From contig DAOMOX010000001.1 of the NCBI GenBank assembly GCA_035444565.1, positions 59,987 to 123,986 of the forward strand: DNA of 64,000 nucleotides, given 5' to 3'. The notes under the pieces are model-generated. The model made no database searches, had not been told where the DNA came from, and saw only the letters and a program-made list of their open reading frames with translations. The number at the start of each line of letters is the position of its first letter. Position 1 is the stretch's first letter. This DNA is from Candidatus Dojkabacteria bacterium (GTDB lineage Bacteria > Patescibacteriota > Dojkabacteria > B142 > OLB20). Shown in pieces: positions 12,948-53,515 of this stretch. Made by a program: the position numbers and the translations under genes.

Positions 12948-13211
12948 ATGTTTTATATATACATAATTCAAAGCAAAAAGGATCATAAGTTGTATACTGG
13001 TTACACCAAAGACATTGATAAGAGAGTGAGTGACCATAATCTAGGTAAAGTGAAATCAACAAAGGCCAGAATACCTTTTGAGTTAGTTTATAAAGAAATA
13101 TTTAGAACCAAGGAAGAGGCAATCGATAGAGAAAAAGAATTAAAAACTGGTCAATGGAGGGAATTGATAAAAGAATTTATCAAAGATGGTGGCAATAGCT
13201 CAGTTGGTTAG
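12948..13211 (+). CDS. Small GIY-YIG nuclease superfamily protein (YhbQ/UPF0213-like)
   Basis: 'FYIYIIQSKKDHKLYTGYTKDIDKRVSDHN' is a canonical GIY-YIG module followed by a conserved Glu. The 3' end overlaps the first 24 nt of tRNA-His. Confidence 0.75.
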   Translation: MFYIYIIQSKKDHKLYTGYTKDIDKRVSDHNLGKVKSTKARIPFELVYKEIFRTKEEAIDREKELKTGQWRELIKEFIKDGGNSSVG

Positions 13212-13265
13212 AGCGCCTCTCTGTGGAAGAGGAGGTCGTGGGTTCGAGTCCCATTTGCCACCCCA
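13188..13265 (+). tRNA. tRNA-His (anticodon GTG) with genome-encoded G-1 and 3' CCA
   Basis: Manual fold. G-1 precedes acceptor GTGGCAA/TTGCCAC. D arm GCTC-AGTTGGTTA-GAGC. Anticodon stem CCTCT/AGAGG with loop cTGTGga. T arm GTGGG-TTCGAGT-CCCAT. Discriminator C73 then CCA. G-1:C73 is the tRNA-His identity element. Confidence 0.9.
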
Positions 13266-14714
13266 TGTAGGACGCTGGTTCATTTCCACTAATGTAGAGA
13301 AGGGTATTTTATAATCATAGTGCAGTTTTGCACCATCCCAGTTAGCGTTCGATAGTACAAGATTCACAATTTTCGATTTATCGGCGTTATTTTCTTCTCC
13401 TTCTTGTAAAAATAGTTCATGAGCCTCTTGTGAAAGTTCGACAATTTTGTTTGCAGTTGTAAAGAAATTCTTATCCGCTAAATCAATATTCTTTAGCTTT
13501 GTAGTAATCATTCTAATCTCATTAGAGTATTCAGCATACTTAACATCATAGAGGTCTTTAGATATCTTCTCATCAAGATATTCATCATACATTTTGGAAA
13601 GTCTATTCCTTAGTTTGATTTTTCTATCCTGGAGTTCTTTTATTAGATCTTCAGAATAACCAGCCCTATCATTGTTAGTTTTCTTAATTGTTTCTTTAAG
13701 CTCTAATGCTATTTGAGGCTTAATCTTTATTTGTTTAAGTGCCTCTGCTATCTGCTCTGTTAATATTTCTTCCCTAACATAGCTTACAGCGTGTTTTTTT
13801 CTGCCCTGACTACAGCTATAGTAGTGAAAGCCTTTATGTCTTTCGGGGACCATTGAACACCCACAGATGGAGCATTTTATCAATCCCCGATATATGAAAT
13901 TGATTTTACCCATGAGTTTAACAGGATTAATTAATCTATTGGACCTGATATCCTCTGCTTTCCTGAAGAGTTCTTCAGATATTATTTGAGGATAAACATG
14001 CTTGTATTTAATATTCTTTTTCTTGTATGTAGCAATACCTATGTAAAAGTCATCCATTAAAATTCTACCTATCTTACTGCTCACTAGCTTTACATTATCT
14101 TCTTTGAGGGATTGAACAATCTCTCTAATAGACATACCATCATATACATAAAGATTAAAAATCTTCTGAACTACCTTAGAGGTAAACTCATCTACTACAA
14201 TATTATTGGGAACGTTTTTGTATCCATAAGGGGCTTTACCGAGTGATAAACCCTTTGATATCCTTTCATTAATAACCTTCTTAACGTTATCAGAAACGGA
14301 TAGTGCATAGCTTTTAGCAAACATTACCCCCATATCCCACCTCAATAACTCATGGCTCCTGGAGTCCTGGTTAATAACTAGATTTTCTGCTATGAAATGG
14401 ACCTCTATTTTATTGGATTTTCGTAAATCATCGAGTGCTACACTATCTCCGAAGTTACGCATACCTCTATCAATGGTATCAAACACTAATGCTACAACGG
14501 AGTTGAGTTCATCAACACGTTTCAACATCTCTTTGAAGGTTTTACGTTCATGCCTTCTACTTGCAGTTTCTACAACTTGATAAATATCTTTAGGAGATTG
14601 TATGAAGAGGTCGTTTTTTTCAAGGTAGGAATATACCCTCTTGAGTTGTGAAGGGATGGAGAAATTATCGCTTTGGTCTGGAGTTGATACTCTAGTAAAT
14701 ACGAAAGCCCTCAA
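13200..14714 (-). CDS. Large serine recombinase (phage integrase)
   Basis: N-terminal resolvase catalytic domain 'FVFTRVSTPDQ'. Central recombinase domain. Zinc ribbon 'CSICGCSMVPERHKGFHYYSCSQ'. C-terminal coiled coil. The 3' end overlaps the complement of tRNA-His. Confidence 0.85.
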   Translation of the reverse strand: MRAFVFTRVSTPDQSDNFSIPSQLKRVYSYLEKNDLFIQSPKDIYQVVETASRRHERKTFKEMLKRVDELNSVVALVFDTIDRGMRNFGDSVALDDLRKSNKIEVHFIAENLVINQDSRSHELLRWDMGVMFAKSYALSVSDNVKKVINERISKGLSLGKAPYGYKNVPNNIVVDEFTSKVVQKIFNLYVYDGMSIREIVQSLKEDNVKLVSSKIGRILMDDFYIGIATYKKKNIKYKHVYPQIISEELFRKAEDIRSNRLINPVKLMGKINFIYRGLIKCSICGCSMVPERHKGFHYYSCSQGRKKHAVSYVREEILTEQIAEALKQIKIKPQIALELKETIKKTNNDRAGYSEDLIKELQDRKIKLRNRLSKMYDEYLDEKISKDLYDVKYAEYSNEIRMITTKLKNIDLADKNFFTTANKIVELSQEAHELFLQEGEENNADKSKIVNLVLSNANWDGAKLHYDYKIPFSTLVEMNQRPTWGGKWDSNPRPPLPQRGALTN

Positions 14715-17425: not shown

Positions 17426-19873
17426 ATGAAATCAAATACATACACTTACAAAGAGTTAATGATAGAAACAATTCGCAGGAGAAGAGAGGAAAAATATAGG
17501 TTTTATGAACCCATTGGTAAGGTTGAGGAGTTTCTTAATAATTTTGGTTCATGTGATTTTTTTGTTTCTGTGCTGAGTGCCGCTAATGGTGTTGGCAAAA
17601 CTACTTTAATAGGGAATATATTAGCTAATCTATTCTATCCGAATAAGAACTCATACTTTCATCAGAAATTGTTTCAAGATTATCCTTTCTCATTAAAGCG
17701 TGGAAGGATAGTTTCTGAACCTACTACCATCAAAGAAACGATTATACCTATGTTAGAGGAGTGGTTAATTCCTGGTACCTACAAGCGTGAAAAAATGGGA
17801 AAGAATTACTACTACCATTGGGAGGTAGAGGGAGGATGGGTTTTCGATATTATGAGTTATGATCAAGCGGTTAAAGAGTTTGAATCTATTACTTTAGGAT
17901 GGTGTCTCTTTGACGAACCACCGCCTGAACCAATTTATAAAGCCACAGTATCACGTATGAGGCGTGGGGGTATCATTGGTATATTTATGACCCCTCTAGC
18001 AGGTTCAGCCTGGATTTATGATGATATTATTGCTAATCAGAACAATGATGAGGGAGAGAGATACTGGAGTACAGCAGAGATGGAGGACGCTTGTTTTCCT
18101 TTATGGATGGAAGTGTTAACAAACCAAGGTTGGAAAAGTTTTAATGATATAGATATCAAAATTGATAAGTATGCAAGTGTAGATTCATTTAATAATAGAT
18201 TCAGCTTCAAAAAATCAACTAGGTTGGTAGAGAAAACCGCTAATGAATTATGCTATCTCAATAGTGGAATTACCTGCACACCAGATCATGACTTTCCCGC
18301 AATTAGAGATGATGGGAAAATACATAGAGTTAAAGCATCACAACTATACAGGGGAAACAAATTACTAACAAGATCTAGAATACACTCCGATAAACTAAAT
18401 TATTCTCCTGATGAAAGGTTTACACCTCTGCAATGGGCAGAGTTTTTAGGGTGGTATATCTCCGAGGGATGCGCTGAAGGGTCAAAGAGTGGAAATAACC
18501 AACACAATCAAGTAATAATTTCTCAAACAAATAAAAGACTCGAACTAGAAACTTTCCTAAATTCTCTCCAGATAGGGTTTAAAAGTAAAAAATCAGGCGA
18601 TAATTGGATATGTGATGAAAAACTTCATCAAATACTTTCACCACTAGGAACAGCAAGAGATAAATATTTACCTTCATATGTGTTTGAAGGGGATTATGAT
18701 TACAGGCATAGACTCCTCGACTCGTTAATAATGGGAGATGGAGATGAGAACGATACTGCATATAGATATAGGACATCTTCAGAAAGATTATCAGACGATA
18801 TACAAATCCTTGCTATGAGTTTAGGTTACAGAACAACAATTACATATCAATCTAATAGGGAAAGATATATTAAAGGTAAAAAACTTCCAGCTATAGGTGG
18901 TGTTTACACTATACGAATACTAAAAAGTAATAAAAACATTTATATTGAAAGAAAACCAGAAATACATACCACAGAACCACAAAAAGTGCGGTGTGTAACA
19001 GTCGAGGATGGCTACATCTTTGTTCGTAACCCGATAGAGAAAGTACCAGTAATAGCAGGGAATTGTATTGAGCATGGAGTTAGAGGTTTCCTACAACACA
19101 AAGATATTGAAAGGATTGTAAATCAGTTCAGCGAGGAAGATAAACAAGCTAGGGTAAAGGGACAATTCCAGCATTTAACAGGCTTAGTATTCAAACAATT
19201 CCAGCCACAAATCCATGTAATAGAACCTTTCGATATAGATATATATAACTATGTAGTAGTGGAGGCACTAGATACTCATCCACGAGTTCCAGATGCTTTG
19301 CTTTATGTAGCAATAAACGAGCAGGGACAGCACTTTGTTATAGATGAATCCTTCGAGAATAACACAACATCACAACTTGCTTTCAAGATTAAACAAAAGA
19401 GGTCTAACTACAGAGTGGTGAAGAAACTTATTGAACCAGCCGCATTTAACCAGGACCAGCATAGAGATTTAAGACAAGGACAATATGCATCCTTAGCAGA
19501 TGAGTTGTATTACGAACATGGATTAGACTTTGAGGCAGGTAGTAAAAGAAGATTAGATGCCATCAAAAGGATTGGGGACTATTTATCCTATCAGAAAGTC
19601 GGGGACCAGTTCATTACATCCCCTAATCTATATATCTTTAGTAGTTGTACGAGATTGAAGTATGAAATTCAGCACTACTTATGGGATGAGTGGAGAGGTA
19701 AGTCGGCTGAATATAGGTCTAAAAAAGAAACACCAATGGACAAGGATGACCACTTGATAGAGGATTTGGGTAGGGTTCTATTAGAGAACGTTCAATTCAC
19801 ACCATATGTTAAGCCATCTTCAATGGACAATAATTCTATTTCTTATAATTCAGATCCATATGCCAAAGTCTAA
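17426..19873 (+). CDS. terL: Terminase large subunit (TerL) interrupted by an intein
   Basis: N-terminal ATPase with Walker A 'AANGVGKTT' and Walker B 'WCLFDEPPP'. C-terminal nuclease region after the intein. The exteins together are ~491 aa, a typical TerL size. Confidence 0.85.
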   Translation: MKSNTYTYKELMIETIRRRREEKYRFYEPIGKVEEFLNNFGSCDFFVSVLSAANGVGKTTLIGNILANLFYPNKNSYFHQKLFQDYPFSLKRGRIVSEPTTIKETIIPMLEEWLIPGTYKREKMGKNYYYHWEVEGGWVFDIMSYDQAVKEFESITLGWCLFDEPPPEPIYKATVSRMRRGGIIGIFMTPLAGSAWIYDDIIANQNNDEGERYWSTAEMEDACFPLWMEVLTNQGWKSFNDIDIKIDKYASVDSFNNRFSFKKSTRLVEKTANELCYLNSGITCTPDHDFPAIRDDGKIHRVKASQLYRGNKLLTRSRIHSDKLNYSPDERFTPLQWAEFLGWYISEGCAEGSKSGNNQHNQVIISQTNKRLELETFLNSLQIGFKSKKSGDNWICDEKLHQILSPLGTARDKYLPSYVFEGDYDYRHRLLDSLIMGDGDENDTAYRYRTSSERLSDDIQILAMSLGYRTTITYQSNRERYIKGKKLPAIGGVYTIRILKSNKNIYIERKPEIHTTEPQKVRCVTVEDGYIFVRNPIEKVPVIAGNCIEHGVRGFLQHKDIERIVNQFSEEDKQARVKGQFQHLTGLVFKQFQPQIHVIEPFDIDIYNYVVVEALDTHPRVPDALLYVAINEQGQHFVIDESFENNTTSQLAFKIKQKRSNYRVVKKLIEPAAFNQDQHRDLRQGQYASLADELYYEHGLDFEAGSKRRLDAIKRIGDYLSYQKVGDQFITSPNLYIFSSCTRLKYEIQHYLWDEWRGKSAEYRSKKETPMDKDDHLIEDLGRVLLENVQFTPYVKPSSMDNNSISYNSDPYAKV
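18092..19063 (+). mobile_element. Intein (324 aa) with a LAGLIDADG homing endonuclease domain, inserted in TerL
   Basis: Block A starts with Cys ('CFPLWMEVLT'). Block B 'GITCTPDHDF'. LAGLIDADG motifs 'LGWYISEGCAEG' and 'LLDSLIMGDGDEN'. Block F 'VRCVTVEDGYIFV'. Block G 'VPVIAGN' is followed by the +1 Cys ('CIEHG'). Confidence 0.8.
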
Positions 19874-20113: not shown

Positions 20114-20506
20114 ATGCAATTTACAAATTCAGAGGGGAAATACATAGACCTGGAAAGATTCGTATGGATAGCCTTCTACAACGATAACACTTCACTAAGT
20201 CAATTCGATACAGATACTCAAGCGTATCACTACTTCAGAGAGATTGAACAATCTAAACTCATTGTATTTAGGATATTAGATACTTCTAATAATCAGACAT
20301 ACGACCTACAGTTTGACCCTTCAACAATGAAACTAATTCACTTCTATAGAACGTTAGTTGTAAAAGGTGCATCTACAACCCAAATAAGATTAACTTGTTT
20401 TGGATACGAAACAAAGCAAGGGGCAGTAATAAACGTTCTACTTCCCGATGGTAGATTAATCACTACAAATAACAAGGATTTCCATATTAATTTACAGGTT
20501 ATATAA
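20114..20506 (+). CDS. hypothetical protein
   Basis: 130-aa ORF. Its stop overlaps the start of the next gene. Confidence 0.45.
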   Translation: MQFTNSEGKYIDLERFVWIAFYNDNTSLSQFDTDTQAYHYFREIEQSKLIVFRILDTSNNQTYDLQFDPSTMKLIHFYRTLVVKGASTTQIRLTCFGYETKQGAVINVLLPDGRLITTNNKDFHINLQVI

Positions 20507-20507
20507 A

Positions 20508-23500
20508 GTGGCAGTAGTAATAACACAAACAGCCAATCCAGCAGGAGTTAACACATCCTCAAATGTAGCCACATACTCTAGCGTAGCCATTGGAGCTGCG
20601 GCAGCGAATAGAATAGTAGTAGTCTTGGTTGGCTCTGAATTAGCCTCAGCCTCGATAAACTCCGTAACGCTTGGTGGAAACGCCATGAGTGCTGGTACTC
20701 AGGGCAATTTTGGTGCAGTATACGCAAGAGCATTCTATTTAGCCTACCCAACAGGAACGACTGCCGACATCGTTGTTACTTACGGAGCAGGGGCAACAAG
20801 CACACAAAACCATATTGCAGTATATAGCGTAACTGGTGGGGTTTATTCTGCTACTGGAGCAGACCAGTCTAGCGATATGGACACAACCGATAGGCTAACT
20901 ACTGGTGCAATAACAATAGCCTCAGGTGGGGGGTTTATTGCAATTGCGGCAGGTGCTACTGATACTGCTGCCAAGACGTGGGCAAATGCTACTGAGGACC
21001 TTGACGTGGATGCGGGGGGTTTTAGGTTTACGACAGCTACTAGGACAACCGCTCTTACCGCTACTGCGGTTACGTGTACTGGTGGTACTAACGGAGAGGA
21101 TGGTGCATTATCTTATCTCCTCTTTACTGCAAATGTTTCCCCAACAGTTGCACTTAACAGTCCAGCAGATACTGCTACAATAACAGACACTACTCCCGAA
21201 TTGATATTCACAGGAACGGATACTGAGAGTAACGATATAAGGTATAACGTGCAGGTGGATACGGTTAATACGTTTGATAGCCTAGGTGGTGCTGAAGATG
21301 CCCTGTACCTAAATGATAATGGAAACCTAAACGCCTCACCTCTTTCAACTTATACCAACGGAATGTCTTTCTTTTGTTGGGTTCAATTAGAAACATTAAG
21401 TAGGTATCATTTAATATGGTCGAATGGTAGAGGTGGCGACTATGGGGAGGGGTATGAATTTTATATTACGTCTGGTGACAACTCTCTTATCATAGGGTTA
21501 TCCTATATTGGTGGTCATAGCTCTTCATTGTCCATAACAGATACAGATTGGCATTTTGTGGGTTTTACAAGAAATTCTGGTACGTGGACACTATATCTTG
21601 ATGGGTCGTCAGAGGTTGTTGGGACTGGAAACCCATACTCTATAAATGGTGCGAATTCCAAAAGTATGATAGGTGGTTACAATGATGCAGGGACACCTGT
21701 TAGTGAGTTCAAGGGTTCTATTGCTAGGGTTGGATATTGGGAAAGAGTTCTAAGTGGGGGGGAAATAGCAGGCCTTTACGCAGGTGCGTTAGTTTCAACG
21801 CTTTCCTCTAACTTGGTAATTGACTGCCAACTAGATGATAGTGCCAATTTTGGTGTTAATGATGGCTCTGCTGGGGACTTCACAGAAAGTGGTACTTTAA
21901 CAGAGGACACGCTTGGCTTTGATGCAGTAGGCGGTGGACCGTTAATTGATGCAGTCTCTGGTACAGATGCGGGGTTTCTGGACTCACCCGATGAAAGTGA
22001 TACAGACCCTTTCACCTCTGGAACTGCAGTTGCCTATACGGTTCAGTCGGCACTTGACCCCGATACTTATTATTGGAGGGTAAGAGGGCTTGACCCATCA
22101 GGTAGTAATTCGTATGGAGCATGGAGTTCTATTAGGAGCTTTACTATTACATCTGGAGAAACTGAAGTATCAATTACCAAAACCCTTGCATACAAAGTAC
22201 AACCATCAGTCTCTATTACTAAAACCATCGCTTATAGAATTAAAACGGATACTGCCATCACAAAGAATTTGGCTTATAGCATAGTAGATGAAATCTCAAT
22301 AACAAAAGGATTAACGTATGAAGTTATTGTAACCACAACGGAAACAATCCAAAAGGATGTTGACTACACAATTATTACCGATAGCTCAATTCAGAAAGGA
22401 TTAGAATACCAAGTTGTAACAAACGCACAAATACAGAAGGACCTGGATTATTTCATCAAGCTAGAAACATCTATTCAGAAGGATTTAGATTATACAATCC
22501 TTACCTCTGATAGTGTAGTAAAGGACCTGGAGTATATTATCATCATTACTGATAGTATAAACAAAGACCTGGACTATACAGTCCTTACGGAAGGATTAAT
22601 ACAGAAGAGTATGCTTTATGAGGTTGTGGTTACTGGAATTGAGAAGGTACAGGCAACGCTTGACTATACAGTAATTACAAGTACAACAATCCAAAAGGAC
22701 CTAGAGTATTTCATCACTACAGAAGGATTAATACAAAAAGACTTATCCTATAAAGTACAACCCTCAACAACAATAACAAAAGATTTAACTTATACAGTTG
22801 AATCTCAGCAGGATGTTACAAAAGACCTTGATTATCATATAGTAATTCCTAAACTTATACAGAAGGATGTAACTTACTTTATAAAAGGTTCTACAGGTAT
22901 TCAGAAAGATGCTGATTATTCGGTTATAACTACCATCGACCAGGACAAGGCATTAGATTATAGAGTCATAACTGAGGGTGATATACAAAAGGATGTAGAC
23001 TACTACATATCAATCACCACGAACGTAGAGAAAGATATCAATTATAACTTGCAAGTAAGTACAACTATTCAGAAGGGAGTTACCTACTCTATCGATGTCC
23101 CCTCAATAATAGTTCAGAAAGAACTTGACTATGCAATAGTAACAACAACAAGCACAACAACCGACCTTGATTATAATATTCTGCTTGAAAGCACTATTCA
23201 GAAAGATACTGATTATTCGGTTATGGGTAGTACAGCAATAACGAAAGGAATTGAGTATACAGTCATAGCACCACAATCAATTGAACAAGCCCTTCAGTAT
23301 ACAATCGCCATCACACCATCAGCTCTAGAGAAAGCACTTGAATATATCATTGTACAAAGGACCACTAAACAATATGAGTTGAGATATAGGGTAGATGCAC
23401 CTCATAGCATTTCTAAGGATTTAATGTATACTATCGGCGAAAAAATAGGGATATGGATAAAACATCCTGGAGAAAGTTCAGACTCATTCACAAAAGATGA

Positions 23501-23627
23501 AGGAGTATCAAGCACATACACTAAAACAGAATCTGTAACAGCGAGTAGTTATACAAAAGAAGAATCTGTAACACCTAGCATATATACAAAGACGGAGAAA
23601 GAATCGTCTTTATGGACCAAAATTTAG
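20508..23627 (+). CDS. Large tail-fibre or receptor-binding-like protein: A/T/G-rich N-terminal region, LamG/concanavalin-like domain, and ~40 tandem 15-aa repeats (consensus IQKDLDYxIxTxxxx)
   Basis: GTG start. The 20.5-22.1 kb stretch is clearly more GC-rich than its surroundings. LamG-like block 'WHFVGFTRNSGTWTLYLDGS...SIARVGYWERVLSGGEI'. The repeat array spans ~22150-23400. Confidence 0.65.
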   Translation: MAVVITQTANPAGVNTSSNVATYSSVAIGAAAANRIVVVLVGSELASASINSVTLGGNAMSAGTQGNFGAVYARAFYLAYPTGTTADIVVTYGAGATSTQNHIAVYSVTGGVYSATGADQSSDMDTTDRLTTGAITIASGGGFIAIAAGATDTAAKTWANATEDLDVDAGGFRFTTATRTTALTATAVTCTGGTNGEDGALSYLLFTANVSPTVALNSPADTATITDTTPELIFTGTDTESNDIRYNVQVDTVNTFDSLGGAEDALYLNDNGNLNASPLSTYTNGMSFFCWVQLETLSRYHLIWSNGRGGDYGEGYEFYITSGDNSLIIGLSYIGGHSSSLSITDTDWHFVGFTRNSGTWTLYLDGSSEVVGTGNPYSINGANSKSMIGGYNDAGTPVSEFKGSIARVGYWERVLSGGEIAGLYAGALVSTLSSNLVIDCQLDDSANFGVNDGSAGDFTESGTLTEDTLGFDAVGGGPLIDAVSGTDAGFLDSPDESDTDPFTSGTAVAYTVQSALDPDTYYWRVRGLDPSGSNSYGAWSSIRSFTITSGETEVSITKTLAYKVQPSVSITKTIAYRIKTDTAITKNLAYSIVDEISITKGLTYEVIVTTTETIQKDVDYTIITDSSIQKGLEYQVVTNAQIQKDLDYFIKLETSIQKDLDYTILTSDSVVKDLEYIIIITDSINKDLDYTVLTEGLIQKSMLYEVVVTGIEKVQATLDYTVITSTTIQKDLEYFITTEGLIQKDLSYKVQPSTTITKDLTYTVESQQDVTKDLDYHIVIPKLIQKDVTYFIKGSTGIQKDADYSVITTIDQDKALDYRVITEGDIQKDVDYYISITTNVEKDINYNLQVSTTIQKGVTYSIDVPSIIVQKELDYAIVTTTSTTTDLDYNILLESTIQKDTDYSVMGSTAITKGIEYTVIAPQSIEQALQYTIAITPSALEKALEYIIVQRTTKQYELRYRVDAPHSISKDLMYTIGEKIGIWIKHPGESSDSFTKDEGVSSTYTKTESVTASSYTKEESVTPSIYTKTEKESSLWTKI

Positions 23628-25795: not shown

Positions 25796-27919
25796 ATGAA
25801 TGAGTTCAAAATAGAAACAGGTACAATAACGCTATCAGATACTATCGATAATGGGATAGAGCAAACTATCACGTTCAAATTCCATTACGTAGACCCTATC
25901 ATAGTGGCATATATCGCTACTAGAAATAATGGAGAATCTATTGATGTTAGAGTTCATGATGTAACAAGTAACAGTTGTAAGATTTATACTCAAGAACCTA
26001 GCCTCGGTACACATGGGACCGAAGATATTAATTACATGATTGTAGAGGCTGGAGAGTGGACACTACCTTCAGGCAAGAAAATTAAAGCTGGAAAAACTTC
26101 AACACAACATCAACATTACTCAGGAAATTCTTATTTAGGGGATAAAATTACATTTTCAGATGCATTTTCAACAGCTCCAGTAGTGATACACCAAATTTCG
26201 AGCCAAAATAGCCCTAATTTCTGTAGTAGTGCCATATTGAGTATTGCATCAACTGGTTTTGAAATAACACAAGAAAAAGGCGGTACAGCTACCGACCTTT
26301 CAGTAGAAACTATAAATTGGATTGCATTTGAGAATACTGGAGGAAATTTTGTGTTTGATCATGGACAAACTGTAAAAATGGAAGTTGACGTTGAGAACAA
26401 TGGATTTTCTGATGGTATAGATAATACTTATCATGAATACACTTTTACTAATACTTACACTTCCACCCCTTATGTAATAGCTAAGATGAATAGTTCTAAT
26501 GATACAGATGGAGCATGGAGTAGAGCCTCAGCTACAGCAACTAACACAACAAGGACAAGAGTATATGCTGAAGAGGACCAGGTGGGAGATAGTGAGAGGA
26601 GCCATAATGACGAGAGTTTCGGGTTCGTTGTTTTCTCTAAACATATTGCATGGAGAGATTGCCTTTCATCTAATGGGTTTAAGATGGAAGTAGGACAAGT
26701 AAATAGTGAGGGTTCGATATACGACCACTCGGTGTTTGTAGAGTTCCAGAATAACTATATAAATCCAATAGTTGTAGCCTTTATTCAAACCAGGAATAAT
26801 ACAGGTTCAATGATAGTTCAAACACTTATAGATGATAGTTTAGAGGGCTATCAGTTCGCCTCATTGTATCTTATCAATATGAGAGATGAAGTGGGTTTAA
26901 GTAAAGGCTTTATAGTAAACATTCAAAATGCTAGTGCATCCTTAGGAGCAAATGCTGAAAAGATTTCCTACATAGTGGTAGAGGCTGGAGACTGGACATT
27001 ACCCAATGGGTTACATATCCAAGCAGGAAAAGCATCTAGTTTAGAATACCATGAGACAGTAGAGGCTTATACAGGTACAACAATACCATTTTATAGCGCT
27101 TTCAGTTCTACCCCTATTCTATTACATAGTTGCGGTGCTAGTTGGTACACAAACGGAACTGTATTAGGTTTTGGAGTAACTACCACAAACTTCAAGTGTG
27201 TAATTGAGAAGGCTGGTTTAACAACATCAAACGGATATTCAGATGTTCCTTGTTATATGAATTGGATTGCTATTGATGATGCAAATGGTTCATTTACACT
27301 ACATGATTCTATTGACTTACTAATGGAAACAAAGAAAGGTTCTCCAGGTGTGAATTGTGGTGTAGATGATACTGCTTATGTTATCAATTATGCTAACACT
27401 TATAGTGTAGCCCCCATAGTAATTGCATCTCAAAATACTGGTAATGGTTCTGATGGTGGATGGGCGAGAGGTTCAGGTACAAACTCAACAACACAGTTCG
27501 GCATTTATTCAGAAGAGGACCAAATATCAGATAGTGAGAGGGCGCATACTAGCGAGACTTTCTCTTTTGTTGTTTTCGAGTCTACATTTAGTCTAGACCT
27601 TACAGAAGAAACTATCACACCTCCATTAGACTACACCATTAAAATATCCCTGGAAGGTAATTCCGTAAACAATGAGAATTTACCAGAGTATGCTCATGCG
27701 ATTATTGATAACAGACAAGCATTAAAAGAAGTTAGTTCAGGTTTATCAGACCAAGATATTGATATAGGTTATTCATTAGGGATGCCCCTTGCTATGTCCT
27801 TTACACGTTCAGGAAACTATAGGTTCGGATTAGTGGGTACAGAATTGGATATGTCCGACCTTCTAAGCCCCTCAGAAGGCTTTTATAGAATATTTTACAA
27901 TAACACTAAAACAGGATGA
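25796..27919 (+). CDS. Tail-fibre or adhesin-like protein with an internally duplicated A-B-A-B domain organisation
   Basis: A-type: 'PIIVAYIATRNNGESIDVRVHDV' and 'PIVVAFIQTRNNTGSMIVQTLIDD', each followed by 'IVEAGEWTLPSGKKIKAGK' or 'VVEAGDWTLPNGLHIQAGK'. B-type: 'DGAWSRASATATN...DQVGDSERSHNDESFGFVVFS' and 'DGGWARGSGTNST...DQISDSERAHTSETFSFVVFE'. Confidence 0.55.
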   Translation: MNEFKIETGTITLSDTIDNGIEQTITFKFHYVDPIIVAYIATRNNGESIDVRVHDVTSNSCKIYTQEPSLGTHGTEDINYMIVEAGEWTLPSGKKIKAGKTSTQHQHYSGNSYLGDKITFSDAFSTAPVVIHQISSQNSPNFCSSAILSIASTGFEITQEKGGTATDLSVETINWIAFENTGGNFVFDHGQTVKMEVDVENNGFSDGIDNTYHEYTFTNTYTSTPYVIAKMNSSNDTDGAWSRASATATNTTRTRVYAEEDQVGDSERSHNDESFGFVVFSKHIAWRDCLSSNGFKMEVGQVNSEGSIYDHSVFVEFQNNYINPIVVAFIQTRNNTGSMIVQTLIDDSLEGYQFASLYLINMRDEVGLSKGFIVNIQNASASLGANAEKISYIVVEAGDWTLPNGLHIQAGKASSLEYHETVEAYTGTTIPFYSAFSSTPILLHSCGASWYTNGTVLGFGVTTTNFKCVIEKAGLTTSNGYSDVPCYMNWIAIDDANGSFTLHDSIDLLMETKKGSPGVNCGVDDTAYVINYANTYSVAPIVIASQNTGNGSDGGWARGSGTNSTTQFGIYSEEDQISDSERAHTSETFSFVVFESTFSLDLTEETITPPLDYTIKISLEGNSVNNENLPEYAHAIIDNRQALKEVSSGLSDQDIDIGYSLGMPLAMSFTRSGNYRFGLVGTELDMSDLLSPSEGFYRIFYNNTKTG

Positions 27920-29232: not shown

Positions 29233-29702
29233 TGTTTGGAGCCAACATATCACAACTGAATAGCAACGTAAACGATGATAATTACCAGGATAAGGTATTC
29301 TCATCAATCAAGCCCTCATTTCTTATTAGAGGTAAAATCTCTATACCACTTACTACTTACGATACTGGAAACTATGCTCAGATTGTTTATACACACAATT
29401 ACGGATATATACCTAACGTGATGGTATTCACTCATACCATGTCAGATAAGTATATCAACATACCTTCAACATGGGGAGAATATTATAATGATCCAGAAGG
29501 GTTAGTAATTGTATCTACTGAAGAGAGTTTCAATTGTTTTGCAGATTCTGTAGCGGTATACATAGAGGCTAGAGTTCATAGATTAGGTTTATATAGAGAG
29601 TTCAATTGGGACACTATGGTGTGGGACGAAACACCAGTAGATGAATACATAATCTATGATTATATGTTTGAGTTAATACTTTCAATGGAGGAGGTCAGTT
29701 AG
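29214..29702 (+). CDS. hypothetical protein
   Basis: 162-aa ORF, the last gene of the plus-strand block. Confidence 0.45.
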   Translation: MEKNSIMFGANISQLNSNVNDDNYQDKVFSSIKPSFLIRGKISIPLTTYDTGNYAQIVYTHNYGYIPNVMVFTHTMSDKYINIPSTWGEYYNDPEGLVIVSTEESFNCFADSVAVYIEARVHRLGLYREFNWDTMVWDETPVDEYIIYDYMFELILSMEEVS

Positions 29703-29719
29703 GTTTAGCAACGAGTCCA

Positions 29720-29741
29720 ATAAGGGTACCCTTATTTTTTA
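29720..29741 (+). terminator. Rho-independent terminator (ATAAGGG-ta-CCCTTAT followed by a T6 run)
   Basis: Perfect 7-bp stem, 2-nt loop and T-tract, 18 nt after the stop of the last plus-strand gene. It is embedded in the 'aggtttagcaacgagtccaa' boundary element. Confidence 0.7.
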
Positions 29742-30862: not shown

Positions 30863-33800
30863 CTATTTCTTACTTTTGTTTTTATAACGAGTTTTAGTCC
30901 TATCTTTAGACCACTCTGCAAAATCTCTAGGATAATACTTAGGGTTTTCCAAACCTTCAACATTAGTTAGTATTTTTGACCGTAATTTGGAAGCCTCCTC
31001 TTGATTCTTCTCAATATCAACTTCCCTAAACTCATCTAACAAGTCGTCTACATCGTCCGTAATTGCTTTTATCCTATATATTTCTTTGATTTCTGGTTCT
31101 GTAATGTTTTCGTACTCTCCCCTATGATTTTGAACCGAAGAATATTTTTTATCATTCTCGTCACGAGTGTTATAAAAGTCTGTAATTCTTCTATCAGACG
31201 TCAACCAATAATCTCTCTGGAAAGATGTTAAAGGATTCAAATTTTCGGGTTGACCCATCAGCATTTTACTTGCACGTCCGAATGTTCCTGTAACAAAATA
31301 GTCAATCTTAATTGGGCTGAGGTTCATCATTTCGCCCAATTTTTTAGCCAAAGGTGTTGTACCTTCATTATATTGTTCGGCATTTGGTCTGTTGGATAAT
31401 CCCTGATTAACTAGAGGTCTCACTTCTGGATACTCTTTTACATTAAAAATTACATGTGTTGTAGGTTTAAAGAATTGTGGGACCCATGCTAGTGCTGCCT
31501 TAGTAGGTTCTGCTAAATTAAACTGATCTGGAATCCACGAAGTAACTAAATCTATATACTCATCAGAGTCATACTTTGTGTCAAACATAGCTTCGGAAAC
31601 TATCATGTTTAGGACCGTAGCAGGGATTGTAATTGGAGTAGGAACCCTAAATCGCCACAATCCTTTTCCAGAAGGATTGGGGAAATATATAAAGTTTGCT
31701 AACTCCTCAGGTGCCAAACCTTTATACTGTTCTTTCTGATCGTCTGATGAGTTTCTAAATAAGTAATCTAATGAAGCTAGATAGGCTGCCATTAACACTA
31801 GACCTACAAACATTATGCGTTTTCTCCCACCAGGAGTTTTAGAAACTCTTGCAAGTTGATCCAATACTTGAAGACTTGCATTAAAGAACGGAAGTCCTCG
31901 TATATAGACCGCTCCAGTAATATCAGATGATGTACTTCCCCACACACCTGTGTGATGAAAAGGTGCCGTTACACGACCTGCTTCTTCTAATGCAACTACT
32001 TGAGATTTACCTGCTTTTCTAGCTGCAACATACTCAGCAGCCCTTGTAATAATCTCACTAGCAGAAGCTGGTTTCTGTAGAATATCAAGCGCCTTAGACC
32101 CAATTAAGGTGGCTTTATCTATAAGGCTTTTCTCTGATTTAATTTTCTCAAACAACTGACTTGGTGACATTTTTTGCCAACCCATGAAGGTTTGTCTTTC
32201 ACCCCCCATTACTAGGTATTCCTCATAATACTTTGACTCAATACTATTCTTGTTGATTTTTTGTTTAATATATGTACTAAAAGGACTATAGAGGGGAATG
32301 AATTTATTGTATGAGTTCACAGATGCAGTCACCTGGTCCATGAAAAAGTTGGTTATAGTAAATGGAACAAAAGCTCCAGTAGTACCTAAAGTGAACATCC
32401 TAGAAACTGCGAGATACAATTTACTGAACTTACCAATCGATTTATAATCAAGGATATCATCTATTATTGTTTTAACCTCTTTGTTAACCAAAATAGGTTG
32501 TCTCTTGTAATTCAGTCTTGCCATTATTATGTTTGGATCTTTCTCTTGCGGATATGTTACCTTCTCGGAGCTTTTATCATAGAGAATTTTTAATTCTTGT
32601 TCCTGGAAGATATTCGGAATTGCCGCTGAACTACCAAGACCCCCTATGCGGTTATATACAACCTGTCTCATAGACTTCCTGACTATTTCCGAATGGTTAA
32701 TCATGGAGGAGTAAATAGGATTAATGATAGTTCTCTCTGATCCTGTTCTTCTCATAAGAGATGAAATCTTGGTCTTTTTAACCTTACTAGTTGAGGGGAT
32801 GTCTGTTTCTCCAACCAACTCATCATAAAACTGTCTTTTGAATGATGCGTAACCTTGGGTGTTGTTAAGTTTATCGAAAGTTGCTTTGTCTATTAGTTGG
32901 ACTTCTGGGTTGTGTAATAATTCTAAATCAGCCTTAACTAGTGAATCAAACATTTTCTCCTCATATTTATATGCTTCAGAGTTCTGTTTATAGGCATCGT
33001 CTACAACCTGTCGTGAGAAACCATCATTATCAAGTACAGACTTAAACTCTTCATATTCTTTTTCTAGTTTTTGTAATAACCTATTGGTCTCTCTTTTAAA
33101 GCGCTCAAGGTTCATGGCGGTATACTCGGGCTTACCATTTTTGATGGTACTAGGGATTATTTCAATCCCATAATCTTCCTCTAACATGGACTTTAAATCC
33201 CTGTTAAATCTAGATAACTTATTAGGCTCGGTTATTTTATTTAGTGCCTTAACAATCACCTCTAGTTGACCTTTTCTGTTCCCTAATAGATCTAACTCTT
33301 TGTACAGAAAGTGCTGTCTTCTAGCTACTAAATAATATCCAAAACTATCAGCTCTGTTATTCTTTTCTAATCTGTCTATTAAAGTCTTCCAATTATATTC
33401 ATATTTCTTTTGAAAACCCGATTCTAAGTCTGTAAATGCCCAATACCCACGTTTAGTAGAGATATTATTTCCAACTATTCCATTTACTGCCGAATATGCC
33501 CTTGCCCATAAAGATGGATCAATCGACTTATTATCAATCCCCGCTTTCTTGGCTATAACCTCTAATGGATACACCTTATCTGCTAATTGTTGCCTCAACC
33601 TTTCTTGTGAGGTGAAGAAGCTCTTGCGATCTATTCCAGTATCATCACTAGAAACTCTCGTTCCAATCTTATCTAACGACTCCAGACCTTGATAATCTGC
33701 TACTAATTGGTTTAAATCTTCTAACATTTTCCCAATTGTGGGTTCATAGTATTCTCCCTTTGGTTTAAGAAACTCATTAACTAGTAAAGGATATTCTGTC

Positions 33801-36800
33801 TCTGTAGTCGTAGGAAACTCGACATACTTCTGTAGTAATGTTGCAAACCCTTCTAATTGCTTTAATCTTGGATTATGCCCTGCCTCAGCTCCTGGATAAT
33901 ATTGTAGATAAATCTTTGATAGTTCTTTGTTTAATTCTGGCTTACTTAGATGTACTGTAATTTTGTATTTTGCATCTAAATAATGGGTGAATTCATGAGC
34001 AAACACCGATAAACTATTAATTGAATCGACACGAATGTTTTTTGTAGAAGGATAATACACGCCTAATGCGCCCCTAGGAAGGTATTTCTCACCAACCGTG
34101 AAGTCTTTATCGTATGATTTAAGCAGACTCTGAATCCTCTGGTATATTTTAAACTCCCTAGTCCCTGGCTTGGGCGATTCCCTTAATTCATACTCATCAA
34201 TTGAGGTGGTCCCTTTAGATTTTAGACTAGATATGGTGGCATATCCTTGTCCCCCTCGTACTTTCTCCCCTCTCTGTTTGCCTGTCTCCTTGCCTCTAGT
34301 TCCCTCTGTGAATTCTCTCTCCCTATTCTCAACGACTCCACCAGTTCGGGTGGAAGAGGAGGTTCTTGATTTCTCCTGAATATTTTGTTTAGTAGTTCTT
34401 TCATTGTTGTTATTACTATCTATGCTAATATTTTTTTGCCCTCCCTTTTCATTTTCTCTAGATACTTCCTTCTTCTCTCCTTGCCCTTTTCGATTCCTTC
34501 GTTCATCGCCTTGATTATGTAATTCTCCCTGCCTTCCCTGTCTTCCCAAGAGGGCATCGAGTTGTTTTTTTGTAATTCTTCCTGATTCATATAATTGTTC
34601 TGCATAACTAGCTATCTGATTAATTAAAGTTTTTTTATTGAAGGGGATTTCCTTTATATATTTAACGTCTAGCCTATGAACTCCTTGCATATTCTCCCCA
34701 TTATTTGTAAACATAATGTTTACATTTTCATTTTTCCCGTAATCTTCAAATAATTTTAAGATTACCATCCTTGCTTTTCTATGAGAATTAATGTGATTAC
34801 TTATAGTGACAGTTCTTGGAGTTCCACTTTCATACCTTGCCATAACTCCATCCTTAAATGCCACAAAAGGTTCTCTGTATACATAAAGGATATCGGTCTT
34901 ATAACCTAAGTCTATGGCTTTATCAATATAGCTTTTAGCCCTATTATAATCAGATAGCGTAGAATCATAAGTAATAGTATAATCATTTTTCAATCGTGAT
35001 TTTGAGGTTGTTTTGCCCGATCCTGTACCTCCTGCTAACATAAGTATGCTTTTGTCTTGTTCTTTACTTTTCTCTACTAGTAGTTTATTTAATACTTTAT
35101 CTGCTACTATTCCACTTGCTCTACCATAATCAACTGCATTGGTACGTTTATAACCATCGAATAAAAGTTTTGCACTATCGGAACTAACGTTATTTCCGAA
35201 CCTTTGAATATAGTTATCAACAATCTCGTCGGGGTTTTCCGATAATTGCTCAAAAGACTTTTTTTCGTCTTCGGATCGGAATTTCTCAGGAACTTCTATT
35301 TTCCCAACGTTATCTTCTTTGGGTGTCGACAATAAATTACCATTGGCTTGAACCCTTTTCTCATCTTCGGTTTCGACTGCGATACCCTCTGTTACTTCTC
35401 CTTCTGCCTGGTCCTCTCTTATTTTAGTGGTGATTATAGGGATTTCATTTATCTTTAGTTCTCCATATGCTTTTAAGCGATGATTTCCATCTTCTACCTC
35501 AAAGGTATTCGGTCCTGTAGGTCTAGCAACAATTGGTACTCTTTTACCGCTTTTAATCTCCTCAAGCGCCCTTTGCCCCCTTTCACTATCAAGAGATACA
35601 TTTTCACTTGATTTTATTTGTGTTCTATCTATTGTTCGCCTTTCAACATTATCAGGTCCGCCTATGTTATCAATCGCCTCTTTGAAAGTTCCTTTGCCTA
35701 TAAACTCATCCTCAAAATAACCCGATTCAGTATCATTGTATTCCTGGAATATATCTGATTCAGGGGTAACATCATTTCTCAAACTCTCTGTTACCTCTTG
35801 TACGTCATTCTCGACTGGACCACCCTCTAACTCATTCAATTCATTGATATCATAGTTCCCATCTTCAACACCTTCTGTTATCCCATCCCTAGCTATAAGA
35901 TCATCCATCCCGGCTATTTCATCTGACACACCTTCATCCACACTTATCTCATCCTCTTCAATACCTGCCTGATTTTCGTTCTGTAATAGTTCTATTTCTT
36001 CTCTTATTACTGAAGGTAAACTATCAGGAGGTATATTCTCTTCTTCATCAATGGGGATCTCGATAGGTCCAAATTCGGGTCTTTTTTCTCTCCACTTATA
36101 CCCGGCATTAACAGTTACCTCTGGAATCTTTACCAATCCCCCATACATACCAATCCCTATAATCTCCATCATTAATCTTTGCGCACCTTCCGGTGTAAGA
36201 AGAGAATGATATTGCCTATCTTCAATCTTGGCTTGTACCGGCTCATTGATTTCTTCTTCTAATATCTCCATTAAAAGCCCATCAAATCCACTCTTCTTGA
36301 GATACCTTGAGAATAAATCAATTGATTTGTTATTACTCTTCGAGATTGCCTTACCAATCAACGCCTTCTGCATGAACTTCTCCGGATTCTCTGTAATCAA
36401 TCCCATACGTTTAACAATTCCTTTATACGCTGCACTACCACCCTTTGTTGTTAAATCTCCGACACGTTCTGAAAAATGTTCAGCCCATGAAGATAGAAAT
36501 GCTTTCCTAAAAGCAACGTTAGGATCATCTCCCTTACTTGCTTCCTTCAGTAAAGCCTCTCCATCTTCACTCATCATTATTTCGTATTCGGGTAACGCAT
36601 ACCCGGCTGCCTTCTCTGATAGTGCCGGGAAATTGATTCCTGTTTGAACTGCTGATTCTGCTAACTCGCCTGTCAATTTCTGCATAAATGGTCCTGCGAT
36701 TCTCTTGGGTAGTATCTTTGTAACAGCCGGACCTATTTTAGTGGCACCTAAGGCACCTTTGGCTGCACCCTTTGTAATCAGAAATTCATATCCGTACCTA

Positions 36801-37696
36801 GCCATATCCGGCATCATCTCTCCGACTGCATAAGGAATACCCCTATCTATTCTAGAATCTATCATCTTGGCTGACATTAGATTCAATGCGGCAATTTCAG
36901 TCTTACTTAATACATCACCTCCATGATATTTCTCGGTTATTGCTTTGATATCTACCAATTCCCTTTCACCCTCTTCTAACTTCTCTAGTGCTTCTTTCGT
37001 GAGCTTATCCCTATCACTTTTCAATGTGTTATATCCAAAGGGTAGAAAACGGAGATCAAGGATTGATTCTTTTAATCCATCAAAGAATCCGGATTTAACA
37101 TCAGACCTATTAATAAACTTGTTGTACATTTCCGCCTCTTCACTAATCAACTGAAGATACTCATGATCTTCTTTCCTCTTCTTTCGTTTCTCTGGATCAA
37201 TTGTAGGAATAAAACCAGCCCATCTTTCCTCAAAGGTCATATTCTGGAACTCTTGATTAAGGAAATTCATCCTCTCTAGTACATAAGGACTCTTTGCTTC
37301 ATACACTTCCGGAGCATTATGATCTATCACCTTCTTCTGGTCGTTATACATCTTCTTTGCATACTTGACTCTATCCTTTGCTCCTTTAATGCTTAGAGGA
37401 TCCTTTAGAAGGACCTTCTTTGGATCCTTCTTGATCGCACTCTTTAGTTTGGAGAAAAAGCCCTCTTCAGGCTCCTCTTTTTTAGTTGAAGTTGATATGG
37501 GAGTTGTATCGGGAGCGGTCCATTTCTTAGGAGTTGTTGGCTCTACTGCCTTGTTATAAGTGCCATCTAAAATAGCATCAAATTGTTTCCTATCGAAACT
37601 GACTTGACGCATTTCTTCATCATCATCATTGTCATTTGTTTGAACTCCGGTAGATAATATCCTATCAAAGTCCTCCCTTGAGAATATCTTAGACAT
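30863..37696 (-). CDS. Giant polyvalent virion protein (2277 aa) with ParB-like nuclease, zeta-toxin-like P-loop kinase, low-complexity R/G/E linker, HExxH metallopeptidase and a long C-terminal region with a TM segment
   Basis: ParB nuclease (ParBc) 'KRVPIVARPTGPNTFEVEDGNHRLKA'. P-loop 'ILMLAGGTGSGKTTSKSRL' with a zeta/PNK-like downstream region. Linker 'RQGRQGELHNQGDERRNRKGQGEKK...'. Peptidase 'SVFAHEFTHYLD'. TM 'IMFVGLVLMAAYLASLDYL'. Confidence 0.7.
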   Translation of the reverse strand: MSKIFSREDFDRILSTGVQTNDNDDDEEMRQVSFDRKQFDAILDGTYNKAVEPTTPKKWTAPDTTPISTSTKKEEPEEGFFSKLKSAIKKDPKKVLLKDPLSIKGAKDRVKYAKKMYNDQKKVIDHNAPEVYEAKSPYVLERMNFLNQEFQNMTFEERWAGFIPTIDPEKRKKRKEDHEYLQLISEEAEMYNKFINRSDVKSGFFDGLKESILDLRFLPFGYNTLKSDRDKLTKEALEKLEEGERELVDIKAITEKYHGGDVLSKTEIAALNLMSAKMIDSRIDRGIPYAVGEMMPDMARYGYEFLITKGAAKGALGATKIGPAVTKILPKRIAGPFMQKLTGELAESAVQTGINFPALSEKAAGYALPEYEIMMSEDGEALLKEASKGDDPNVAFRKAFLSSWAEHFSERVGDLTTKGGSAAYKGIVKRMGLITENPEKFMQKALIGKAISKSNNKSIDLFSRYLKKSGFDGLLMEILEEEINEPVQAKIEDRQYHSLLTPEGAQRLMMEIIGIGMYGGLVKIPEVTVNAGYKWREKRPEFGPIEIPIDEEENIPPDSLPSVIREEIELLQNENQAGIEEDEISVDEGVSDEIAGMDDLIARDGITEGVEDGNYDINELNELEGGPVENDVQEVTESLRNDVTPESDIFQEYNDTESGYFEDEFIGKGTFKEAIDNIGGPDNVERRTIDRTQIKSSENVSLDSERGQRALEEIKSGKRVPIVARPTGPNTFEVEDGNHRLKAYGELKINEIPIITTKIREDQAEGEVTEGIAVETEDEKRVQANGNLLSTPKEDNVGKIEVPEKFRSEDEKKSFEQLSENPDEIVDNYIQRFGNNVSSDSAKLLFDGYKRTNAVDYGRASGIVADKVLNKLLVEKSKEQDKSILMLAGGTGSGKTTSKSRLKNDYTITYDSTLSDYNRAKSYIDKAIDLGYKTDILYVYREPFVAFKDGVMARYESGTPRTVTISNHINSHRKARMVILKLFEDYGKNENVNIMFTNNGENMQGVHRLDVKYIKEIPFNKKTLINQIASYAEQLYESGRITKKQLDALLGRQGRQGELHNQGDERRNRKGQGEKKEVSRENEKGGQKNISIDSNNNNERTTKQNIQEKSRTSSSTRTGGVVENREREFTEGTRGKETGKQRGEKVRGGQGYATISSLKSKGTTSIDEYELRESPKPGTREFKIYQRIQSLLKSYDKDFTVGEKYLPRGALGVYYPSTKNIRVDSINSLSVFAHEFTHYLDAKYKITVHLSKPELNKELSKIYLQYYPGAEAGHNPRLKQLEGFATLLQKYVEFPTTTETEYPLLVNEFLKPKGEYYEPTIGKMLEDLNQLVADYQGLESLDKIGTRVSSDDTGIDRKSFFTSQERLRQQLADKVYPLEVIAKKAGIDNKSIDPSLWARAYSAVNGIVGNNISTKRGYWAFTDLESGFQKKYEYNWKTLIDRLEKNNRADSFGYYLVARRQHFLYKELDLLGNRKGQLEVIVKALNKITEPNKLSRFNRDLKSMLEEDYGIEIIPSTIKNGKPEYTAMNLERFKRETNRLLQKLEKEYEEFKSVLDNDGFSRQVVDDAYKQNSEAYKYEEKMFDSLVKADLELLHNPEVQLIDKATFDKLNNTQGYASFKRQFYDELVGETDIPSTSKVKKTKISSLMRRTGSERTIINPIYSSMINHSEIVRKSMRQVVYNRIGGLGSSAAIPNIFQEQELKILYDKSSEKVTYPQEKDPNIIMARLNYKRQPILVNKEVKTIIDDILDYKSIGKFSKLYLAVSRMFTLGTTGAFVPFTITNFFMDQVTASVNSYNKFIPLYSPFSTYIKQKINKNSIESKYYEEYLVMGGERQTFMGWQKMSPSQLFEKIKSEKSLIDKATLIGSKALDILQKPASASEIITRAAEYVAARKAGKSQVVALEEAGRVTAPFHHTGVWGSTSSDITGAVYIRGLPFFNASLQVLDQLARVSKTPGGRKRIMFVGLVLMAAYLASLDYLFRNSSDDQKEQYKGLAPEELANFIYFPNPSGKGLWRFRVPTPITIPATVLNMIVSEAMFDTKYDSDEYIDLVTSWIPDQFNLAEPTKAALAWVPQFFKPTTHVIFNVKEYPEVRPLVNQGLSNRPNAEQYNEGTTPLAKKLGEMMNLSPIKIDYFVTGTFGRASKMLMGQPENLNPLTSFQRDYWLTSDRRITDFYNTRDENDKKYSSVQNHRGEYENITEPEIKEIYRIKAITDDVDDLLDEFREVDIEKNQEEASKLRSKILTNVEGLENPKYYPRDFAEWSKDRTKTRYKNKSKK

Positions 37697-53359: not shown

Positions 53360-53437
53360 CCATCTTTATGTTAAAGAGAAAAATGTGAAGTCCTGATTTA
53401 AGCTCATTATTCCAGTTCTAAACACGTCCCATAAGGC

Positions 53438-53515
53438 ACCCCAGTGTTTCTGAGCTTGCGAAGAAATACACTGGGTAAGGTCTGCCGTAGCTTTAGCGTA
53501 GGCATGACCACCCCA
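53438..53515 (+). repeat. 78-bp direct repeat, copy 1 (75/78 identical to 58818-58895); contains a hairpin CCAGTGT-N22-ACACTGG
   Basis: 'accccagtgtttctgagcttgcgaagaaatacactgggtaaggtctgccgtagctttagcgtaggcatgaccacccca'. Confidence 0.85.

Follow-up and report, generated by a model that had tools for sequence, protein, structure and literature searches.

The putative fibre gene and its genomic neighbourhood

The window, by which we mean the whole 64,000-nt stretch of DNA analysed here, contains a gene for a 1039-aa protein that is referred to below as the fibre gene (Table 1). The gene begins with a GTG codon located 1 nt past the stop of an upstream 130-aa ORF (open reading frame), and the N-terminal sequence MAVxITQTANPAGV read from this codon is kept in 45 homologs; therefore, the start assignment is right. 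Downstream of the gene lie ORFs of 605 and 90 aa, a gene for an H-lectin protein, a 182-aa ORF and a gene for a Gp10_C baseplate-domain protein, and the fibre gene forms one + strand cluster with the H_lectin and Gp10_C genes. The opposite strand encodes a 2277-aa LPD38/zeta-toxin-like protein, a major head protein (PHROG E = 2.5e-70), an SU10-like portal protein and a replication protein O; RecT and YopX genes come next, on the + strand.

A protein 100% identical to the fibre-gene product is encoded on a 620,866-bp contig of a Candidatus Dojkabacteria MAG. Because the phage genes lie beside an F-type ATP synthase operon and a tRNA-His gene and the identical protein comes from a Dojkabacteria contig, the locus is a prophage in the chromosome of Candidatus Dojkabacteria, a CPR bacterium. 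The window shows no second copy of the tRNA-His end of the kind expected for an att duplication. A template repeat of a diversity-generating retroelement (DGR) was likewise not found, as no long direct repeat pairs the region of 20.5-23.6 kb with any other part of the window.

Table 1. Features of the window around the fibre gene and modules of the encoded protein
Feature	Residues (aa)	Position (nt)	Strand	Description or basis
F-type ATP synthase operon		3.7-9.1 kb		host chromosome
tRNA-His		13189-13265
Large serine recombinase		13200-14714
Terminase large subunit		17426-19873		split by LAGLIDADG intein
Fibre gene, whole	1-1039	20508-23627	+	ORF list
N-domain	1-210	20508-21137	+	all-beta sandwich; most widely conserved module
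Junction module J1	211-274	21138-21329	+	small beta module ahead of LamG
Laminin_G_3/concanavalin A-like lectin domain (LamG)	275-421	21330-21770	+	Pfam PF13385
Junction module J2 (...YYWRVRGLDPSGSNSYGAWSSIRSFTI)	471-555	21918-22172	+	segment of about 75 aa before repeat arrays of many kinds
Repeat array, 30 tandem units	556-981	22173-23450	+	register and unit counts
C-terminal tail	982-1039	23451-23624	+	five [FYW]TK motifs; motif positions

N-terminal domain and the LamG cassette

The N-domain was modelled with a pLDDT of 95.5, and a fold search of BFVD with this model returned 69 matches at E <= 1e-3. Those ranking highest are phage 'minor tail proteins', which cover the whole domain with TM values of 0.6-0.78 and E down to 5e-10. 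These proteins, of the actinobacteriophage type, contain a beta-sandwich that is like the N-domain in fold over its full length but has just 12-20% sequence identity to it; they are devoid of LamG domains and 14-aa repeats, the role of their own domain is only putative, and the label 'minor tail protein' mostly derives from synteny. At the sequence level, the N-domain matched no PHROG at E <= 1e-3 and gave no meaningful Pfam match at E <= 10, and sequence matches to the N-domain and to the repeats were found neither in GenBank phages nor in PHROGs or PDB. Woesebacteria, Collierbacteria and Zambryskibacteria genomes encode relatives of the N-domain with 55-62% identity; in these proteins, SPSxS-type arrays of more than 1000 aa come after the domain. 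The domain is at times internal or C-terminal, as in the proteins P0024, P0037 and P0071.

The following residues, 211 to 555, constitute a junction-LamG-junction cassette. The LamG domain matches PF13385 with 57.1 bits (cut-off 27.6; E = 3e-15) over profile positions 8-151 of 151 and gives weak matches to neurexin/pentraxin LG domains in PDB; it is a candidate ligand-binding module. J1, which has no Pfam match, may be Ig/FN3-like, and its amino acid sequence is 93% identical to that of the orthologous locus in the sister prophage L004. More than 40 proteins share J2 (...YGAWSSIRSFTI) at 50-86% identity, among them all inspected proteins with a repeat array, and the segment shows a weak match to Ig_Rha78A_N (E = 0.034). 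The YGAWS motif of J2 is also found in the neighbouring H-lectin gene (family D5).

Period, divergence and predicted structure of the repeat array

The array has a period of 14 aa, or 42 nt. The autocorrelation of the amino acid sequence is 0.288 at lag 14 versus 0.077 at lag 15, that of the nucleotide sequence is 0.441 at lag 42 versus 0.319 at lag 45, and a repeat finder independently gave a spacing of 42 nt (family D1). Compared with shuffled sequences, whose maximum over all lags was 0.115 +/- 0.007, the lag-14 autocorrelation (0.30) corresponds to a z of 27. A period of 15 aa/45 nt was rejected because the signals at lags 14 and 42 exceed those at lags 15 and 45, and a two-unit (28-aa) super-repeat found no support, as the identity between units shows no alternation with the distance separating them. 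Twenty-six of the 30 units are 14 aa long, two are 15 aa and two are 16 aa. Their consensus is I-Q/T-K-D-L-D-Y-x-I/V-x-T-x-x-x, in which Tyr7 is found in 30/30 units, Ile/Val9 in 29/30 and Lys3 in 26/30, and positions 1, 5, 7 and 9 are hydrophobic in 90-100% of the units.

The units have a mean pairwise identity of 34% in amino acids and 46% in nucleotides (nucleotide maximum 0.76), which does not decay with the distance between units, and the longest exact duplicated word within the array is 16 nt. Synonymous codons are mixed across the units (for example, Lys is encoded by AAA in 14 cases and AAG in 12), and the 14-aa array went unreported by Tandem Repeats Finder. Recent slippage was rejected on the basis of the diverged units, the mixed codons and the blindness of Tandem Repeats Finder to the array; the units are old.

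In the AlphaFold2 model of the array, which was computed for the monomer only, nearly every unit has a 7-residue strand at positions 5-11 and one beta-bridge at position 1. The model is periodic, all-beta and solenoid-like, with a mean pLDDT of 48, a confidence too low for its topology to be trusted as evidence for either a trimeric fibre or a solenoid.

An earlier note on this DNA, made from the letters alone, had reported a 1039-aa protein bearing a long series of tandem repeats with a consensus starting IQKDLDYxIxT, the units of which had diverged at the DNA level and did not stem from recent slippage; our analysis agrees on each of these points. The period of 15 aa/45 nt and the number of about 40 units given in that note have to be revised to the values above. 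The array had been placed at 22150-23400 and at the C-terminus; it does lie in the C-terminal half, with the borders given in Table 1 and the 58-aa tail after it. The long regular beta-structure that had been proposed is supported at the level of secondary structure, by the strand predicted in nearly every unit; as to its three-dimensional form, the model with its low pLDDT favours neither a trimeric fibre nor a solenoid.

The tail contains its five [FYW]TK motifs at intervals of 10-11 aa, and Tandem Repeats Finder reported a 33-nt repeat within it, at 23528-23590. It is better conserved than the array: in the homologs P0002-P0004 the tail is 83-97% identical, versus 65-89% for the repeats.

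The repeat as a protein family

A profile of 3 units, made with units of the window itself, was searched against 1.84 billion proteins. The results gave 319 cluster representatives at E <= 1e-3 (clusters defined at 50% identity), 132 of which were detected at E <= 1e-30. The same profile found nothing in PDB at E <= 10, an hmmscan of aa 556-1039 against Pfam at E <= 10 returned only below-threshold matches to unrelated families, and a description of the 14-aa repeat was not found in the literature searched.

Among the best 150 of the 319 representatives, the dominant unit is 14 aa long in 122 and 15 aa in 28, with a median array length of about 24 units and a maximum of about 70. In 87% of these 150 the array ends no more than 80 aa from the C-terminus, and short periodic aromatic-Lys/Arg tails usually close it; tails comparable to that of the fibre protein (SPYxxK, GPWKTK) terminate many members of the family. 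The modules upstream of the array include LamG/DUF2341, GH18, Kelch propellers, CBM96/disaggregatase and GLUG-like repeats. Judged from these sequences, the array is a portable C-terminal module standing behind varied binding modules. Where the genomic context is readable, family genes sit within phage structural clusters. Their usual place is that of the first large gene past the head and connector-size genes, and relatives of the protein or of the repeat module occupy this place in four other phage backbones.

Base composition and module exchange

The first 1.6 kb of the gene has a GC content of 0.43-0.49, versus about 0.34-0.38 around it, and aa 1-210 consist of 19% Ala, 16% Thr and 12% Gly. 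GC1/GC2 is 0.53/0.59 in the N-domain versus 0.42/0.31 in the repeats. GC3 is flat along the gene at 0.31-0.33, with values of 0.20-0.33 in the neighbouring genes, and the L004 orthologue shows the same codon-position pattern. Since the GC excess is confined to codon positions 1 and 2, GC3 is flat and L004 is alike, the excess reflects amino acid composition and not foreign DNA; GC as a mark of foreign origin was thus rejected. The GC step mirrors a protein segment rich in Ala, Thr and Gly, and base composition is uninformative on acquisition.

Module exchange is supported by two other lines of evidence, discordant module identities and sharp breakpoints in the DNA. The protein P0003 (1693 aa) and the fibre protein share 68% identity over the N-domain, 89% over the repeats and 97% over the tail; the corresponding values for P0004 (1460 aa) are 92%, 66% and 90%. 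P0006 (894 aa) has an N-domain that is 97% identical and then a different 14-aa repeat (SERGLYT...), and P0005 (590 aa) ends ahead of any repeats. The locus L018, which has the same phage backbone and an additional glycosyltransferase-like gene upstream, is 88.6% identical to the window in nucleotides up to 20497, 68% over the N-domain and 94.6% from 22185 on, a switch located 12 nt inside the array. L020, an unrelated and differently organised phage, matches the window only at 20498-21275 (91%) and 21942-22142 (87%); the former match covers the N-domain and J1, which accompanies it, and the latter covers J2. These identity switches indicate that the breakpoints coincide with the module borders. 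Natural alleles of 1039, 1049 and 1693 aa were confirmed at the locus, and a further relative has 1460 aa.

The fibre gene is also the fastest-evolving structural gene in its operon. Between the window and L004, the flanking genes have 85-97% nucleotide identity, versus 55-78% for LamG and the repeats, and dN is 0.20-0.25 for LamG (0.23, with dS saturated), J2 and the repeats, 0.065 for the N-domain and 0.01-0.05 for five neighbouring genes. The dN/dS ratios do not exceed 0.22 with dS near saturation, and no direct sign of positive selection was seen in this comparison.

The GC-richer 5' part with an Ala/Thr/Gly-rich region and a LamG-like domain, from which the earlier note had argued for a mosaic receptor-binding protein acquired by module exchange, is indeed present. 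The compositional step does not bear on acquisition, as its flat GC3 and its recurrence in the L004 orthologue show; the mosaicism itself stands on the breakpoints and discordant identities, and receptor binding is a probable role to which we return below.

Comparison with known fibres and rods

The shafts of adenovirus fibre and reovirus sigma1 are likewise made of a short-period hydrophobic repeat in a viral attachment fibre. Triple beta-spiral shafts consist of a 15-aa hydrophobic pseudo-repeat, the number of which sets the shaft length (PMC7248032), and their consensus has hydrophobic residues at c, e, g, k and m and Pro/Gly at j (PMC3150272). In the best register, the array is hydrophobic at c, e, g and m (0.93, 1.00, 1.00 and 0.90, respectively) but not at k (0.13), and the hallmark Pro/Gly at j is found in 13% of its units, with no position above 17%. 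The period of about 15 aa also differs from the 14 aa of the array, in which the predicted strand comprises 7 residues, and a sequence match between the array and any PDB chain, shafts of the adenovirus/reovirus type included, was not obtained at E <= 10. Membership of the triple beta-spiral class was rejected because the array fails at j and k; by the sequence features that define the class the array appears to stand outside it, yet it may work alike.

Beta-solenoid rods, such as curli CsgA, parallel beta-helix adhesins and tailspikes, are a second point of comparison. A 14-residue rung would be much narrower than those of tailspike helices; rungs of 14 residues also occur in the beta-roll of the trimeric YadA head. 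The array has no sequence relationship to these rods, and its likeness to a solenoid comes from a model with a pLDDT of 48.

The protein resembles mosaic phage tail fibres and receptor-binding proteins in having a conserved N-terminal domain and exchangeable distal modules with breakpoints at domain borders. Unlike in mosaic tail fibres generally, the shaft and tail form a separate portable C-terminal cassette that is shared across unrelated N-termini, so that both ends are 'constant', in different families.

Probable function of the fibre protein

Taken together, we consider that the gene probably encodes a modular virion-associated fibre or adhesin of a temperate phage residing in the Candidatus Dojkabacteria chromosome, that is, a tail or neck fibre, which most likely serves as a host-recognition protein. 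A role in receptor binding is inferred from the genomic context, the fold and the evolutionary rate. According to this proposal, the N-terminal beta-sandwich would dock the protein on the virion, the junction-LamG-junction cassette would provide a lectin-type binding site, and the 30 x 14-aa array would form a long, regular, rigid all-beta stalk. The length of the stalk would be about 14 nm with one solenoid rung per unit and about 40 nm with a spiral of the adenovirus kind. The aromatic/Lys tail would cap, register or anchor the C-terminal end.

The polarity could be opposite to the one proposed. In the repeat family, the C-terminal part is constant and the N-terminal binding modules are variable; therefore, the attached end could be the C-terminus. 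Canonical tail fibres have the opposite polarity. A broader idea, which we regard as possible though rather doubtful, is that the array and its aromatic-Lys/Arg tail represent an undescribed fibrous beta fold, a portable 'stalk-and-anchor' cassette for interchangeable N-terminal modules with perhaps reversed polarity. Its users would be phages, notably those of CPR bacteria, and the displayed modules would be LamG, Kelch, GH18 and CBM96.

Three other explanations were weighed against a host-recognition fibre. The protein might be a virion decoration, such as a head fibre, neck whisker or collar appendage, which serves environmental adhesion or stability and is not the primary receptor-binding protein, with the repeats forming a monomeric beta-solenoid rod. 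We think this unlikely, because the fold matches are tail proteins and not head proteins, hypervariability and cassette exchange are typical of host-range determinants, and the solenoid-like model of the array is of too low confidence to establish the topology.

Still less probable is a lysogenic-conversion adhesin, that is, a LamG surface protein made by the CPR host for attachment to partner cells and not a part of the virion. Among the LamG/concanavalin proteins of CPR and DPANN viruses, those of about ten CPR phages, Dojkabacteria-linked ones included, are interpreted as host-adhesion factors in PMC11310336. The LamG protein described here is likewise encoded by a CPR phage; a 14-aa repeat array does not appear in the passages of PMC11310336 considered here. 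It also speaks for such an adhesin that CPR cells are episymbionts and that the P0005 homolog sits among glycosyltransferase genes. Against it, the 1039-aa protein contains no signal peptide, lipobox or transmembrane segment, its sole hydrophobic stretch lying on confidently modelled beta-strands; its gene is translationally coupled within a terminase-to-baseplate cluster; its N-domain carries a phage tail-protein fold; and four other phage backbones have relatives placed between the head genes and the tail genes. Whereas PMC11310336 reads such proteins as serving host adhesion, the genomic context, the missing export signals and the tail-protein fold of the N-domain suggest a virion component in the present case.

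We also give little credence to the idea that ligand binding resides in the array itself, as a multivalent Tyr/Lys ladder acting on a repetitive envelope polymer in the manner of cell-wall-binding repeats, with the N-terminal modules as delivered effectors: Tyr7 is invariant and Lys3 nearly so, the array and its aromatic/basic tail stay constant behind GH18, Kelch and CBM96 modules, and the repetitive shaft of reovirus sigma1 binds sialic acid (PMC3150272), but the conserved positions 1, 5, 7 and 9 alternate like a buried strand face, the variable positions 8 and 10-14 are those expected to be exposed, the array has no likeness to known wall-binding repeats in Pfam or PDB, and the keeping of about 30 units among close relatives suggests a length constraint.

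Significance

A phage fibre that is mosaic and evolves fast would not surprise specialists, and in this respect the protein is of an ordinary kind for phage host recognition. What sets it apart is the repeat cassette without a relative in Pfam or PDB, found in a poorly explored host group. The repeat family, with about 320 clusters and neither a Pfam model nor a solved relative, merits a profile and a structure, and the repeat could supply a new rod-like scaffold. To our knowledge, host recognition by the phages of CPR/Patescibacteria is little understood, and these bacteria are largely uncultured. The locus offers a concrete candidate for a host-recognition protein, for which the module borders are mapped and natural alleles are available, and its reading as a virion component can be tested against the published interpretation of the LamG proteins of CPR phages as host-adhesion factors.

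Prophage boundary and direct repeats

The 3' end of the large serine recombinase gene (see table) is overlapped by the tRNA-His gene. Beside this pair lies the F-ATPase operon of the host, and the site marks the prophage's left boundary. A repeat search of the window found no att duplication for the tRNA-His site. In the related contigs L004, L005 and L006, the recombinase is reduced to a remnant of 89 aa. The two copies of the 95-nt direct repeat are separated by 5.4 kb, and positions 29701-29731 are similar to its 5' part. The phosphoribosyltransferase/PRA-isomerase fusion, which is unusual, is located close to the presumed right prophage end.

Features of the window and of related contigs (window coordinates unless a contig is named)
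Feature	Position	Strand	Remarks
tRNA-His	13189-13265	+	
Large serine recombinase	13200-14714	-	504 aa
Terminase large subunit	17426-19873	+	815 aa, intein-interrupted
H_lectin-domain protein	25796-27919	+	707 aa
LPD38 protein	30863-37696	-	2277 aa; Pfam: LPD38, Zeta_toxin (weak)
95-nt direct repeat	53421-53515; 58801-58895		Copies 91% identical
Phosphoribosyltransferase + PRA-isomerase ORF	60526-63570	+	1014 aa
N-domain relatives	L010 6001-12279; L012 6001-9789		Woesebacteria and Zambryskibacteria genomes
Glycosyltransferase-like gene	L018 7369-8019		216 aa, extra gene in sister phage

Terminase and genes near the fibre cluster

The intein, at about aa 226-560 of the terminase large subunit, carries a LAGLIDADG homing-endonuclease domain. 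Between this terminase and its orthologue in L004, identity is 96-98% in the exteins but only 63% in the intein. The LPD38 protein, encoded by a gene with the fibre cluster on one side and the head genes on the other, is similar to the large polyvalent proteins that mobile elements carry. Besides the fibre protein, the H_lectin protein is a candidate for a further adhesin; its gene contains an internal duplication (26021-26067 and 26957-27003, 79%), and the 'GAWS' junction motif occurs both there and in the fibre gene.

Fibre alleles and relatives of the N-domain

In the sister phage L018, the glycosyltransferase-like gene is inserted directly upstream of the fibre allele of 1693 aa, in which GLUG-like repeats and DUF2341/LamG are also present. 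The N-domains from the Woesebacteria and Zambryskibacteria genomes are 55-62% identical to that of the fibre protein. Behind them, hexapeptide arrays of the SPSASV/SPSLSP type extend over 1000-1800 aa, an extremely low-complexity alternative to the proposed 14-aa stalk.
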